Part shown: in pieces, positions 23,776 through 42,540 of the stretch | Layout of the letters: every line of letters begins with the position of its first letter | How positions within the stretch are numbered: the first letter of the stretch is position 1 | Origin: Anaeromyxobacteraceae bacterium | GTDB taxonomy: Bacteria; Myxococcota; Myxococcia; Myxococcales; Anaeromyxobacteraceae | Assembly (NCBI GenBank): GCA_047602405.1 | Contig: JASGHJ010000002.1 | Location: 2,848,001 to 2,912,000, forward strand | Length of the DNA: 64,000 bases | Direction: 5' to 3' | The notes under the pieces: model-generated | Told to the model about the DNA's origin: nothing | The model's input: only the letters and a program-made list of their open reading frames with translations | Database searches by the model: none | Position numbers and translations under genes: made by a program

Positions 23776-25162
23776 GTGCCGCCCACGGCCACTGCCGCCC
23801 TCCTCGCCTGCATGCTCACCACCACGCCCGCCTCGCGCTGGACCGCCTACGAGACCTCCCGCGACGGGAAGGCGCCGCTCGCCCCGCCCGCCACCGCCGG
23901 CGCCGGCGGAGGCCCCGAGATCGCCGTCGACCCCGGGGAGGGCTTCCAGGGAATCCTCGGCTTCGGCGGCGCGCTCACCGAGTCGTCGGCCTGGGTGCTC
24001 GCGCAGCTGCCACCTGCGCGGCGCCTCGAGGTGCTGCGCCGCTACTTCGACCCCGCGGACGGCCTCGGCTACACGCTCGCCCGCACGCACGTGAACTCGT
24101 GCGACTTCTCGCTCCACATGTGGGAGCTCGATCCCGTCCCCGGCGACTACGACCTGCACGGCTTCTCGCTCGAGCCCATGCGGCGCTGGCTCCTGCCGCT
24201 CCTCCACGACGCGCAGGCGGCGGCGGGCGGCGCGGGCAAGCTCCGGCTGCTCGCCTCGCCGTGGAGCCCGCCGTCCTGGATGAAGACGAACGGCACCATG
24301 GACCGGGGCGGGAAGCTCCGGCCGGAGTACGCACCGTCCTGGGCCGGGTACTACGTGCGCTTCGTGGAGGAGATGGAGAAGGAGGGCCTCCCGGTCTGGG
24401 CGCTCACGGTCCAGAACGAGCCCGAGGCCGCGCAGCGCTGGGAGTCCTGCGAGTACACGCCGGAGGAGGAGCGCGACTTCGTGCGCGACCACCTCGGCCC
24501 GGCCCTCGAGCGCGCCGGCCTCGCGCGCGTGAAGCTCCTCGGCTGGGACCACAACCGCGACCGGCTCGAGGCGCGCGCCGCGGCGATGCTGGGCGACCCC
24601 GCCACCGCGCGGTACCTGTGGGGGCTCGGGGTGCACTGGTACGTGAGCGACGACTTCGCCGCCTCCGCCCGCGTCCACGCCGCCCACCCGACGAAGCACC
24701 TCCTCTTCACCGAGGGGACCGTGGAGGGCGCGCGCATCGGCCTGTGGGAGAACGCCGAGCGCTATGCCCACCAAATCATGGGCGACCTCTCGAACTTCGT
24801 GGAGGGCTGGATTCGACTGGAACGTGGTGCTCGACCAGCGGGGCGGGCCGAACCACGTCGGCAACTTCTGCGACGCGCCGGTCATCGTCGACACGCGCAC
24901 GAAGGAGGTCCGCTACGGCCCGTCCTTCCACGCCATCGCCCACTTCTCCCGGTTCGTGAAGCCGGGCGCGCGGCGGATCGCCTCGCGCGCGGCGGCGGGC
25001 GCGCCGGAGGCCATCGCCTTCCGGAACCCGGACGGCGCGGTCGCGATCGTGCTCCTCAACGCGACCGACCGGGCCGTCGACTTCACGCTGCGCGTCGGCG
25101 CGGAGGCGCGGCCGGCGCGGATCCCGGCCCACGCCATCCAGACCCACCTCCTCCGGCCGTGA
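23776..25162 (+). CDS. Glycoside hydrolase family 30 (apparent frameshift near 24812)
   Basis: FQGILGFGGALT, SCDFS, ASPWSPP.WMKT, QNEP (acid/base), WDHN, HWY, FTEG (nucleophile); DWNVVLDQRGGPNH in the next frame. Confidence 0.88.
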
Positions 25163-27318: not shown

Positions 27319-28761
27319 CAATGCCGATCGGTTAGCGCCAACCGATCGAGACCGATGGGGATTTTGGAGGCCGGGGCAGCAGAGTTGCCGCGGCGATCCA
27401 GGAGATCATGATGCGGCGATCGCCCGGAGGGCGATCCCATGCCGCGTCGCCCCGTTTCCGCCCAAGAGGACAGCTCGGGCGAGTTGCTGGATAGGTTCCA
27501 GGCGAGCCTCGATCCCGAATGGATCGAGGAAGCCCTTCAGGCCACCGGGACGGCCACCATCCGCCGGCGCCGCCTTCCAGCCGAGCAGGTCGTCTGGCTC
27601 GTGCTCGGGATGGGCATCTACCGTAACAAGCCCATCGCCGAGATCGTCGCGGAGCTCGATCTCGCGCTACCGGGGCGGCGCCCGCGCGCGGCCTCGAGTT
27701 CGGTGACCCAGGCGCGCGAGCGGCTGGGCAGCGAGCCCATCCGCTGGCTGTTCGAACGCAGCGCCGAAAAGTGGGCGCACGAGAGTGCGCGCCGGCACGC
27801 GTGGCGCGGGCTCGCCGTCTACGGCGTGGACGGCACGACCGTCCGTCTCCCGGACTCCGAAGCGAACCGCGATCATTTCGGCTACGCCGTGAGCTCCCGA
27901 GGCGAGAGCGCGTATCCGATGGCACGCCTCGTCACGCTGATGGCCCTCCGCTCGCACCTGCTGGCGGCGGCCCGCTTCGGTCCACAGTCGGGCAGCGAGA
28001 TCGCTCTCGCCAGGGAGTTGTGGCCGCTCGTGCCGGACGAGTCGCTGTGCATCGTGGATCGCAACTTCCTCTCGTCGGCGCTGCTCATCGGCATTGCGAG
28101 CCACGGGCATCGAAGGCACTGGCTCATCCGCGCGAAGAGCGACACGGCCTGGAAGGTAGTCCGCTCGCTCGGGCGCGGCGACTGGCTCGTCGAGAAGACC
28201 GTCCACCGGGACGCCCGCCGAGAGAACCCTGACCTCCCCGAGCGCTGGGAGATGCGGGCGATCCGCTATCAGCGGAAGGGCTTCAAGCCTCAGACCCTGC
28301 TGACGTCGATGACGGACCCGGAGGTTTACCCGGCGGCCGAGATCGTCGCGCTCTACCACGAGCGCTGGGAGATCGAGCTCGGCTACGACGAGGTCAAGAC
28401 TGTCATGCTCGACCGCGAGGAGACGACGCGCAGCAGGACTCCTCGCGGCGTCTCCCAGGAGCTCTGGGGCCTCGCCCTCGCGTACAACCTCGTCCGGCTC
28501 GAGATGGAGCGCATGGCCGAGGACGCCGGCGTCACGCCCGACCGCGTCAGCTTCAAGAACGCGCTCATGTACATCGAGCACGCCCTCCTAACGCTCTCCC
28601 TAGAGAGCGCGGGACGCATCCCGGAGCACCTCCGCCGCCTCCGGGAAGACGTCGTGCACTTCATCCTGCCGAAGCGACGGCTGCGGTCCTACCCGAGGGC
28701 CGTGAAGATCAAGATGAGCAACTACCCCCGGAAACGCCGAGGGCTTAAGTGAGCGGCATTG
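27319..28761 (+). mobile_element. Complete IS4-family insertion sequence (1443 bp)
   Basis: Imperfect terminal IRs CAATGCCGATCGGTTAG and (reverse complement) CAATGCCGCTCACTTAAG; 10-bp direct repeat GGGCTAGGCC at 27309-27318 and 28762-28771. Confidence 0.95.
27439..28752 (+). CDS. IS4-family DDE transposase
   Basis: RRRRLPAEQVVWLV, VDGTT, VDRNF and YHERWEIELGYDEVK (YREK signature). Confidence 0.95.
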   Translation: MPRRPVSAQEDSSGELLDRFQASLDPEWIEEALQATGTATIRRRRLPAEQVVWLVLGMGIYRNKPIAEIVAELDLALPGRRPRAASSSVTQARERLGSEPIRWLFERSAEKWAHESARRHAWRGLAVYGVDGTTVRLPDSEANRDHFGYAVSSRGESAYPMARLVTLMALRSHLLAAARFGPQSGSEIALARELWPLVPDESLCIVDRNFLSSALLIGIASHGHRRHWLIRAKSDTAWKVVRSLGRGDWLVEKTVHRDARRENPDLPERWEMRAIRYQRKGFKPQTLLTSMTDPEVYPAAEIVALYHERWEIELGYDEVKTVMLDREETTRSRTPRGVSQELWGLALAYNLVRLEMERMAEDAGVTPDRVSFKNALMYIEHALLTLSLESAGRIPEHLRRLREDVVHFILPKRRLRSYPRAVKIKMSNYPRKRRGLK

Positions 28762-28852: not shown

Positions 28853-29890
28853 ATGGCCTCCTCCAACGTCACCGCTTCGAAGCTCCCGACCTTCGAGCTC
28901 GTCCTCCGGAACTACAAGAACTTCAACGCCCGGGCGACCCGGGACGCGCTGCTCGCCTACTGGCGGCACGTCGAGTCCGGCGGCCGGATGTTCTGGGCCG
29001 TCGCCGGCGCGATGTCCTCGGCGCAGCTCGGCATCACGATGGCGCCCGCCATCCGGGCCGGCCTCATCCACGGCCTCTCGGTGACCGGCGCCAACCTGGA
29101 GGAGTCGCTCTTCCGGCTCGTCGCCCACCACGCGTACAAGGACTTCCCGGACTACCGCTACTTCACGAAGGAGGACGACACCCGCATCCTCGAGCAGCGG
29201 ATGCGCCGGGTGACCGACACCTCCATCCCGGAGGACGAGGCGTTCCGCGCGGTCGAGAAGATCATCGTCCCGATGTGGACCGAGGCGACCGCGAAGAACG
29301 GCCGCCGCTTCTGGCACGAGTACTTCTACGAGCTCATCCAGAAGATCCCGGCCGCGGCCTACGAGGGCAACCCCGAGGAGTGCTGGCTGCTCGCCGCCGC
29401 GAAGGCGGGGCTCCCCATCGTCGTCCCCGGCCACGAGGACTCCACCTTCGGCAACATCTTCGCGTCCCACGTGAAGACCGGCGAGTGCTCGCCCCTCATC
29501 GTGAAGTCGGGCATCGAGTACATGGCCGCCTTCTACGACCAGTACGAGACCCTCTCCGAGGGCAAGGGCGTCGGCTTCTTCCAGATCGGCGGCGGCATCG
29601 CCGGCGACTTCCCGATCTGCGTGGTGCCCTCGATCAAGTACGACCTCTCGAAGCCGGTGAAGCCCTGGGCCTACTTCTGCCAGATCTCCGACTCGACGAC
29701 GTCCTACGGCTCCTACTCGGGCGCGACCCCGAACGAGAAGATCACCTGGGACAAGCTCACGAAGGACACCCCGATGTACGTGGTGGAGTCCGACGCGACC
29801 ATCGTGGTCCCGCTCATGCTGACCGCGCTCCTCGAGGCGAAGGCGCACCCCGCCGAGGCGAACGCCCTCATCAAGAGCGCAGGCTACTAG
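28853..29890 (+). CDS. Deoxyhypusine synthase-like protein
   Basis: AGAMSSA, TGANLEE, EDST.GN, IGGG, SYSGATPNEKITWDKL, ESDATIV. Confidence 0.9.
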   Translation: MASSNVTASKLPTFELVLRNYKNFNARATRDALLAYWRHVESGGRMFWAVAGAMSSAQLGITMAPAIRAGLIHGLSVTGANLEESLFRLVAHHAYKDFPDYRYFTKEDDTRILEQRMRRVTDTSIPEDEAFRAVEKIIVPMWTEATAKNGRRFWHEYFYELIQKIPAAAYEGNPEECWLLAAAKAGLPIVVPGHEDSTFGNIFASHVKTGECSPLIVKSGIEYMAAFYDQYETLSEGKGVGFFQIGGGIAGDFPICVVPSIKYDLSKPVKPWAYFCQISDSTTSYGSYSGATPNEKITWDKLTKDTPMYVVESDATIVVPLMLTALLEAKAHPAEANALIKSAGY

Positions 29891-29919
29891 CTCATCCGCA
29901 GAATCGTCGGCATGCGGTA

Positions 29920-30588
29920 CCGTGGGAGCCAAACGGGCCTCCGCGACAGCGCTTGCTCGGACGGGTTTGAGACGGAACAGATCGCCGGAACCGTTGCTGT
30001 TCCATGGCGGTGACCGCCGCAGCAGGCCTGCGCGCGAGTTGCGCGTGTCGACGCCGTGCGCTGCGCGCACGTCGCCGACACACGCCCTCGTCACTTGGCC
30101 TGCATTGCTAGGATCCTGGTGGCCGTACCTCGCCCGTCGCTCGCTGCGCGCTGCTGCGGAGGCCCGTTTGGCTCTCGGGCGTGGTGGACTGACGTCGGCC
30201 GTAGATGCCGGGTGCCGATGAACGACTAACGATGGGCGATGGCCATTTGGCAGTTTGCCCGCCGCATCTTCTTCACCATCAGTTCCGCACTTGCACCCCA
30301 GCACCATCGGCCGACCTCAGTCCGCTCGTTCCGAGGGCGAAACGCGCCTCCGCAGCGGCGCGCAGCGAGCGACGGGCGAGGTTCCGTCCCCACATCTGGG
30401 CATTGCAGGCCAAGCGACGAGGGCGTGTGACGGCGCCTTGCGCGCAGCGCAAGGCGTCGTCACGCGCAACTCGCGTGCAGGCCTGCTGCCACGATCACCG
30501 CACTGCAACAGCAACGGTTCCGGCGATCGACACCGTCTCATACCCGTCCGAGCAAGCGCCGTCGCGGAGGCGCGTTTCGCCCCCACGG
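29920..30588. repeat. Long fold-back intergenic element, copy 1 (unit A forward, spacer, unit B reverse)
   Basis: 29920-30178 is an imperfect reverse complement of 30331-30588; a second copy lies at 41779-42437. Confidence 0.9.
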
Positions 30589-30601
30589 CAACGTTCGTCG
30601 T

Positions 30602-31120
30602 CTAGAGCTTGCCGGGAAGCTTCTTGGTGAGGTCCTCGAGCTTGCGGACCTGCTCGGGCAGGACCGCCTGGACGAGGTTGTGCTCGCGGGCGAGCGAGGC
30701 GAACTCGCTCGTCGACGCCCTGGCCCCGATCCACGGCAGGGCGTCGCCGGCGATGGCGATGGCGGAGAGCGCGACCCAGGCCGCCACGAGCGCCTTCGCG
30801 CCGGACAGGACCGCGCCGAGGGCGCGGTCGGCCGGGGCGCGCACGGCCCGGGAGAGGGCGGTGCCGCGGAGGGCGGCCGCGCCGAGGAGGCCGAGCAGGG
30901 AGGCCGCGCCCGCGAAGACGAGCGCCGGGGCCGCGGCGCGTGCCAGGGCGGCCGGGAGCGCGTTCTCGAGGCCCGCGGCGATGGGGGCCGCGAGGATCCG
31001 CGCGGCCAGGGCGGCGAGCACGTAGGCGACGAGCTGGATCACCTGCCGGAGCGCGCCCGACCCGGCGCCCGAGAGGGCCGCGACGAGGAGGAGCGCGAGG
31101 ATGACGAGATCGAGGGCCAG
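30602..31120 (-). CDS. cvpA: CvpA (colicin V production) family membrane protein; start codon unclear (CTG at 31120)
   Basis: LDLVILALLLVAALSGAGSGALRQV...ADRALGAVLSGAK. Confidence 0.75.
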   Translation of the reverse strand: MALDLVILALLLVAALSGAGSGALRQVIQLVAYVLAALAARILAAPIAAGLENALPAALARAAAPALVFAGAASLLGLLGAAALRGTALSRAVRAPADRALGAVLSGAKALVAAWVALSAIAIAGDALPWIGARASTSEFASLAREHNLVQAVLPEQVRKLEDLTKKLPGKL

Positions 31121-36418: not shown

Positions 36419-41737
<5,319 letters not shown>

Positions 41738-41778
41738 GGGGGCTTGCTCGTCCCGAGCTTCTCGGCCTGGCCGCGAGT

Positions 41779-42437
41779 CCGTGGGAGCCAAACGGGCCTC
41801 CGCGACAGCGCTTGCTCGGACGGGTTTGAGACGGAAGAGATTGCCGGAACCGTTGCCGTTCCACGGCGGTGATCGCGCAGCAGGCCTGCGGACCATGTGC
41901 GCGTGACGGCGTCGTGCGCTGCGCGCACGGCGCCGTCCTCGCGCGATGGTTCCTTGGCCTGCAATGCGAGATGTGGTGACGGTACCTCGCCCGTCGCTCG
42001 CTGCGCGCTGCTGCGGAGGCCCGTTTGGCTCTCGGGCGTCGTGGACGGCGGTGCGGCCGATACTGCTGGGGTGCTGGTGAACGACTAACGGTAGGTCACC
42101 CGCCGTCCGTCACCTCATCGGAACCATCAGTTCATCACTCGCCGCCCAGCAGTATCGGCCGACCTCAGTCCGCTACCTCCGAGGGCGAAACGCGTCTCCG
42201 CAGCGGCGCGCAGCGAGCGACGGGCGAGGTTCCGTCTCCACATCGCAGCATTGCAGGCCTAGAGATGTGGGCGGGTGACGGCATGGCGCGCGCAGCGCGC
42301 TGTGCCGTCACCCGCATCTCAATCGACGGCCTGCTGCCGCCGATCACCGCCGTGGAACAGCAACGGTTCCGGTGATCGGTCCCGTCTCAAACCCGTCCGA
42401 GCAAGCGCCGTCGCGGAGGCGCGTTTCGCCCCCACGG
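41779..42437. repeat. Long fold-back intergenic element, copy 2
   Basis: 41779-42035 is an imperfect reverse complement of 42179-42437; first 56 bp identical to copy 1. Confidence 0.9.
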
Positions 42438-42540
42438 CAACGCACCGTCGACGACAAGGGGGGAACGAACGGCCAAGCGTGGGACGAACGGTTGGCCCCC
42501 ACGGCAGCGCACCGTCGACGACAGGGGAAACGAGCGGTTC

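Follow-up and report, generated by a model that had tools for sequence, protein, structure and literature searches.

Giant REPIN-like hairpin doublets in the genome of an Anaeromyxobacteraceae bacterium

The closest described systems are the REPINs, dimers of REP sequences linked to RAYT transposases (PMC3116915, PMC3733652, PMC6006769, PMC8266576, bioRxiv 2021.07.10.451892). As portrayed in these sources, REPINs are inverted doublets with a variable spacer, lie outside genes near 3' ends, prefer heterodimers, retain a conserved stem mismatch, are inherited vertically and decay, and are targeted by IS110-family elements. The repeat family described here is alike in these respects. It differs in size, with a branched unit of ~330 bp against the 20-40 bp given for REPs in PMC3733652, and in copy number, with 16 loci against hundreds for REPINs. 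It also differs in that the GTRG tetranucleotide is not invariant, no RAYT gene is flanked by the repeat, and pairing is conserved within each unit and not across the doublet. Two further classes are treated in PMC3733652. The CGTC-tagged REPs described there are likewise palindromic dimers without a known transposase, but their stems are 8-9 bp; TIRtron repeats flank a Y1 gene, which the giant units do not. The means by which REP-like repeats lacking a flanked transposase might spread are presented there as an open question.

Layout, copies and genomic sites

The window, meaning the whole stretch of 64,000 nucleotides analysed, comes from the source genome (G000; 6.16 Mb, 74% G+C) and holds copies 1 and 2 of the repeat (Table 1). 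A sister-species genome, G010, served for comparison. A first-pass annotation of the window had described copy 1 as two inverted, self-folding units, A and B, with compensated differences between them, and this anatomy held up. Unit A (29920-30178) is the reverse complement of 30331-30588 with 86.1% identity over 259 nt, and the compensated motifs all lie where they had been placed (29926/30161, 30335/30569, 30045/30076, 30427/30458, 30055 and 30437). Self-folding of unit A was borne out by z-scores of -6.35 as DNA and -6.68 as RNA, equalled by 0/200 shuffles. The neighbouring genes are convergent as claimed, gene calling gave no gene within copy 1, and comparison of the element flanks revealed no target duplication.

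The limits of the repeat had to be redrawn. The unit had been put at ~258 bp, but alignment gave a repeat of ~330 bp, made up of a ~14-base outer flank, a 258-base hairpin and a ~55-base tail, with conserved sequence extending beyond the hairpin on both sides. In copy 1, ~14 conserved bases lie beyond each outer limit (29920/30588), and the stretch previously read as spacer (30179-30330) consists mostly of conserved tails, leaving only 42 nt of true spacer. The alignment comprised 29 of the 31 G000 units and three G010 units; the truncated pair at C2:2545332 was excluded.

Table 1. Coordinates of copy 1, its neighbouring genes and copy 2 (positions in the window)
Feature	Position	Strand	Basis or remark
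Upstream gene, deoxyhypusine-synthase-like	28853..29890	+	PF01916, E 8e-36; reads into unit A outer end
Conserved outer flank, type-a unit	29906..29919	+	alignment
Unit A (type a) hairpin	29920..30178	+	folding, alignment
Unit A outer helix	29926-29952/30148-30174		contains invariant tandem mismatch
Unit A short helix	30022-30028/30097-30103		
Unit A apical helix	30035-30061/30065-30090		loop C-GCA-G on - strand
Link segment	30111..30125	+	13-base motif common to sister hairpin family
Unit A inner tail	30179..30233	+	conserved, part of repeat
True spacer, 42 nt	30234..30275	.	93% identity to spacer of copy G000:C2:3365509
Unit B (type b) inner tail	30276..30330	-	conserved; IS1111 position in 4 other copies
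Unit B (type b) hairpin	30331..30588	-	86% identity to unit A
Unit B outer flank	30589..30602	-	abuts downstream gene's stop codon
Downstream gene, CvpA/colicin-V-production family	30602..31042	-	PF02674; reads into unit B outer end
Copy 2	41765..42451		type-a unit 41779-42035 on +, type-b unit 42179-42437 on -; between convergent genes

Several neighbouring features were recorded alongside. An IS4-family transposase (window 27439-28752) lies immediately 5' of the deoxyhypusine-synthase-like gene, and another copy of it adjoins a Y1 gene elsewhere (L006). A glycoside-hydrolase-like gene (window 23776-25162) appeared, by eye from the list of open reading frames, to be split by a frameshift near 24900. 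Immediately upstream of copy 2 lies a gene for a secreted, Cys-rich repeat protein of 1772 aa (window 36419-41737).

BLAST and profile searches of G000 found 31 units at 16 loci, comprising 15 inverted pairs and one solo unit; the genome-wide BLASTn count that had been suggested for copy 1 makes it one of these loci. All elements are extragenic. Heterodimers of a type-a and a type-b unit, types assigned by the analyst from the outer stem, account for 14/15 pairs. Partners within a pair average 71% identity, and each unit has an 88-98% match at another locus. All 15 element pairs sit between convergent genes, compared with 829/5016 adjacent gene pairs overall as called by a crude gene caller, and a gene points into the outer end of 31/31 units, the solo unit included. 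All 16 loci lie outside a zone of ~2.3 Mb round the skew-predicted origin, a zone drawn post hoc.

In six of the 14 elements examined, copy 1 with C2:3365509 among them, the spacer was 91-94% identical to that of an unlinked copy. Spacers common to unlinked loci imply that doublet and spacer were copied or converted as one piece. The search for a target-site duplication across 15 elements, whose ends are fuzzy, gave a longest flank repeat of 5.13 nt against 5.12 in mismatched pairs. Profiles of ends, tails, centres and sides run over G000 matched only the elements and stuttered ends, and no DDE-type autonomous element with the same ends was found there. The centres of the 15 pairs contain no genes, insertion sequences excepted. 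An assembly artefact was considered and excluded by arms that are 57-90% identical, by the 16 loci and by presence in a second genome.

The outer ends had been likened to the GTRG tetranucleotide of RAYT-associated REPs, a likeness that stood in part: GTGG occurs in 18/29 aligned G000 units, but GTAG in 0/29. The last two letters of the position are RG in 28/29 units, but RG can extend the stem. Relative to the hairpin, GTGG is 5' and belongs to the strand without GNA loops, which speaks against the REPIN-like reading. Some outer ends are also stuttered in tandem with periods of 31-47 bp, mostly breaking at a short direct repeat next to the invariant mismatch (window 42440-42530; G000:C2:1350355, 3293137 and 3365509; G010 L008:1350-1500).

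G000 also contains a sister family of giant paired hairpins, with about 20 units at 13 loci (e.g. C2:3323061). The two families are alike in size, inverted pairing, convergent sites and an outer-end motif. They also share a 13-base motif, of whose 16 matches in G000 15 fall in them (six in this family, nine in the sister family); 91 relatives have 0-5 matches per genome. They differ in that their profiles do not cross-detect and the 13-base motif lies on the opposite side of the apical hairpin, and in that the sister family has many solo units, a variable apex and no IS1111. One sister-family copy (G000:C2:278075-279630, L377) has a ~900-bp centre with a foreign-looking open reading frame (634-1464, - strand), possibly cargo, and a partial extra unit.

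Smaller repeats were noted in passing. Two units, at G000:C1:2244403 and C2:518809 (L143, L145), carry a small CGTC-type REP-like repeat in place of the side arm; this repeat has 242 heads in G000, of which three lie no more than 120 bp from the end of an element. A further intergenic repeat of ~60 bp with two hairpins and GNA-type loops gave 23 exact 18-mer matches in G000 (C1 about 484300, C1 about 699141 and 20 or more other sites). Inverted hairpin leaders of convergent four-helix-bundle gene cassettes (G000:C2:3644838, C2:7283, C1:316531, C1:2166937) resemble the unit by a short motif only.

Fold of the unit

Three helices with 59 pairs were 92.2% paired across the 32 aligned units. The covariation proposed by the first-pass annotation was upheld by its score, 0.208 compared with 0.088 in shuffled alignments (0/500) and 0.021-0.069 in slid ones, but less so by two-sided changes, which were found in 17/59 pairs, a number reached by 47/500 shuffles. 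With 2-4 alleles per segment and related sequences, independent compensatory events are few. Linkage between the arms was complete, with 0/128 allele discordances and a Cramer's V of 1.00 (four helix segments, 32 units). Neighbouring segments on one arm gave V of 0.66-0.80 and 12 haplotypes, indicating reassortment. Arm-to-arm linkage is stronger evidence for conserved pairing than the covariation count.

Whole-element predictions paired unit with unit in 14/20 cases, which goes against a within-unit reading. Copy 1 was among them: its equilibrium prediction is a single A-with-B hairpin with 231 pairs and none within units, so that the within-unit fold requires local exposure of one unit. Between the two tails or the two flanks of an element, no co-adaptation was detected (p 0.29-0.65). 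The conserved feature is the fold of the single unit.

The loops and mismatches carry information on strand and on the nature of the folding molecule. Read on the strand that leads outward from the spacer, apical loops are C-GNA-G in 26/32 units (GCA 14, GAA 11, GTA 1), and within them only N varies. C-GNA-G is a DNA mini-hairpin motif that PMC13037366 describes as far less stable as RNA. Variable pairs include 66 of G.T type on the spacer-outward strand, compared with 20 on the opposite one. The outer helix has a tandem mismatch that does not vary across the units (32/32); a required bulge is reported for REP hairpins (PMC8266576). DNA folding energy was lower on the spacer-outward strand in 22/29 units, and strand preference by z-score was weak (17/29). 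Taken together, loops and mismatches point to DNA as the more likely folding molecule. The conserved segment next to the short helix was also considered as a sigma-54 site, but on inspection its spacing is 5-6 and not the consensus 7, and this reading was rejected.

Distribution, history and the IS1111 passenger

The repeat was found by profile search in two of 92 family genomes, G000 and G010, and by DNA search in the same two among 401 genomes of the phylum, where few candidates are scored per genome and 'not found' falls short of 'absent'. A third match in the phylum, 51 bp in G113, scored 2.6 bits and was dismissed as chance. One of six matches in a metagenome scan was genuine (contig L182). 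The plasmids, phages and viral contigs searched gave no match. A pattern scan of a genome collection had little reach, its over-loose pattern returning 118 stretches with a best unit-profile score of 12.7 bits. No description of the repeat was found in the literature, the supplementary REPtron and REP lists of PMC3733652 and PMC6006769 lying outside the scope of that search.

Orthologous G010 sites were compared for 11 of the 16 G000 loci. One holds an intact element, four an internally deleted one and six none, so that an element or remnant is kept at 5/11. The intact element is at the copy 2 site; the copy 1 site has a 43-bp gap and no element, and one of the six element-free sites contains another gene. 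One site without the element in G010 is filled in the metagenome contig, and that absence at least is therefore a loss. No new G010-specific site was seen, every G010 match being at a site common to G000. The proposed empty-site comparison thus did find G010 sites without the element, but these resemble deletion scars, and the comparison yielded no clean pre-insertion site. At one site checked across the genus, only G000 carries the element among genomes with both flanking genes. Orthologous units rank 4, 16 and 8 of 29 in identity and are not mutual best matches, which points to conversion after insertion. The G010-type empty copy 1 site occurred in contigs of two of four sequencing runs (shares 0.17 or less), and a single 74-nt RNA-library piece in the sequencing runs was uninformative on expression.

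Four elements carry an insertion sequence of 1470 bp. It encodes a DEDD transposase (domain matches PF01548, PF02371 and NF033542) and has subterminal repeats of 12 bp and, downstream, a long non-coding region. PMC11187229 gives as IS1111 features a DEDD transposase, subterminal repeats of 11-13 bp with 7 and 3 bp extensions, and a long guide-containing non-coding region downstream of the transposase. By sequence, the passenger has the IS1111 layout.

All four G000 copies of this element (4/4) sit at one position in the type-b tail. No exact target 9-mer without an insertion is left in G000, and one element whose target site differs by a single base carries no insertion. The left and right sides of the target are each matched by a segment of the non-coding region, in line with the bridge-RNA model of PMC11208160. 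Among relatives with 75-78% identity, guide segments and target differ together; at the 23 loci of relatives outside G000, none lies in unit-like DNA. The tail is thus the predicted target of a guide-programmed IS1111, and such targeting would mean that it has been a stable multi-copy target. Comparable cases in PMC11187229 and PMC11208160 are ISPa11 in a P. aeruginosa REP and ISKpn4 in attC, also guide-programmed elements in folded multi-copy sites, although here the insertion is some 50 bp outside the hairpin, in tail sequence that is unpaired.

Mobilising enzymes and rival explanations

The association with RAYT transposases raised by the first-pass annotation found no support. None of the 11 Y1/HUH loci in G000 has a unit, tail or end at its flanks, nor does any of 29 Y1 loci from the genus have any unit part there. 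Two Y1 proteins scored 49 and 67 bits against the REP-transposase model (cut-off 80), the rows for L001 and L002 being left out over their reading frames. Elements were found near Y1 genes with a post hoc p of 0.017, which became 0.082 after regional control, and the Y1 genes have short terminal repeats of their own, unrelated to the unit. One Y1 transposase (L002:837-2031) lies between 34-bp inverted repeats in a TIRtron-like arrangement, and three near-identical dispersed Y1 copies (L003-L005) each lie 15-37 kb from an element. The Rfam check returned 0 matches above the gathering threshold (Rfam 15); six miRNA-type matches of 21-26 bits fell far under it. No sigma-70 promoter or intrinsic terminator was found at the unit. 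Reverse transcriptase matches in G000 numbered eight, seven near-identical and group II intron-type and one internally deleted copy (L188, L191-L197), and none of them lies at an element.

It seems unlikely that the units act as RNA, whether as structures at the 3' ends of read-through transcripts (stabilising them or insulating the convergent genes from each other) or as a multi-copy ncRNA. The gene pointing into every outer end would suit such a role, the unit folds equally well as RNA, and PMC3733652 discusses REPs as 3'-end RNA elements. However, the strand a transcript meets first carries A.C mismatches and TNC loops, the flanking genes are functionally unrelated, and 10/11 orthologous sister-species sites have the element absent or deleted. 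The ncRNA family offered as an alternative by the first-pass annotation is likewise disfavoured by the DNA-type loops, this loss at most orthologous sites and the missing Rfam match, promoter and terminator. We give equally little credence to an origin without any enzyme, in which the elements are by-products of gene conversion and compensation arises by template switching between quasi-palindrome arms. The few alleles per segment, the concerted evolution, the stutters between short direct repeats at five outer ends and the failure to find a cognate enzyme in G000 all agree with it. Yet arm copying should erase mismatches and the tandem mismatch is invariant; loops retain G and A while N varies; asymmetric tracts predict discordant arms, of which there are none; and conversion cannot found new loci, the site checked across the genus being filled only in G000.

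A recombinase substrate (attC- or CTX-attP-like), or the ends of a lost autonomous element whose cargo would have occupied the centre, is more doubtful again. A single crossover between a pair of folded stems would yield nested swaps, attC is likewise a target of IS1111 relatives (PMC11187229), and the sister-family copy with its ~900-bp centre could be read as carrying cargo. Alignment inspection, however, revealed no attC-type R boxes (R''/R'), the 15 centres are devoid of genes apart from the insertion sequences, there are no cassette arrays and a target duplication was not found. The anatomy also recalls retron ncRNAs, in which an outer stem encloses short hairpins and one long hairpin; the unit has this arrangement, and its complementary strand carries loops of DNA type. 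Spread of retron-like ncRNA/msDNA modules by reverse transcription is nevertheless very improbable: the reverse transcriptases are of group II intron type and away from the elements, and inverted pairs at 3' ends are foreign to the retron arrangement.

The reading we favour, with a probability of roughly 0.55 on an evidence base of two species and a low copy number, is that these dispersed non-coding doublets spread as non-autonomous REPIN-like single-stranded DNA elements served by a transposase in trans. It draws on the dispersed inverted heterodimers, the lack of target duplication, the sister-species sites and the IS1111 parasite. The REPIN/BIME-like interpretation of the first-pass annotation thus fits in anatomy, distribution and behaviour but not in its RAYT link. 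The size, the want of a flanked RAYT and a GTRG signal that could be read either way (GTGG in 18/29 units) keep us from filing the family with the REPINs; we class it as a giant REPIN-like, non-autonomous element. On this model, a single unit would fold during transient single-strandedness of the spacer-outward strand. An HUH/Y1 transposase would recognise the folded unit through the invariant mismatch and GNA loop and copy the doublet at a low rate. Copies would then be inherited vertically, with conversion or recombination exchanging the sub-hairpins nested in them, and would be lost through deletion across the long inverted repeat. For the IS1111, the tail may serve as a harmless place to insert, in the way that REPs serve ISPa11.

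A more tentative proposal, possible though improbable, is a new class of giant hairpins with at least two families in one genome that have a short module in common, in which folded units recombine and a non-RAYT single-stranded DNA recombinase or HUH enzyme drives the process. One crossover between single-stranded stems would then swap everything apical to it and produce nested structural cassettes.

As a giant REPIN-like element, the family would extend the REP/REPIN plan tenfold in unit size. Linkage within the unit tracks base pairing and not distance, which would reflect either strict selection on the fold of a non-coding DNA or recombination between folded strands. With its 16 copies, one lineage intact and another in decay, an invariant mismatch and an insertion sequence on the tail that is predicted to be guide-programmed, the family lends itself to direct tests.
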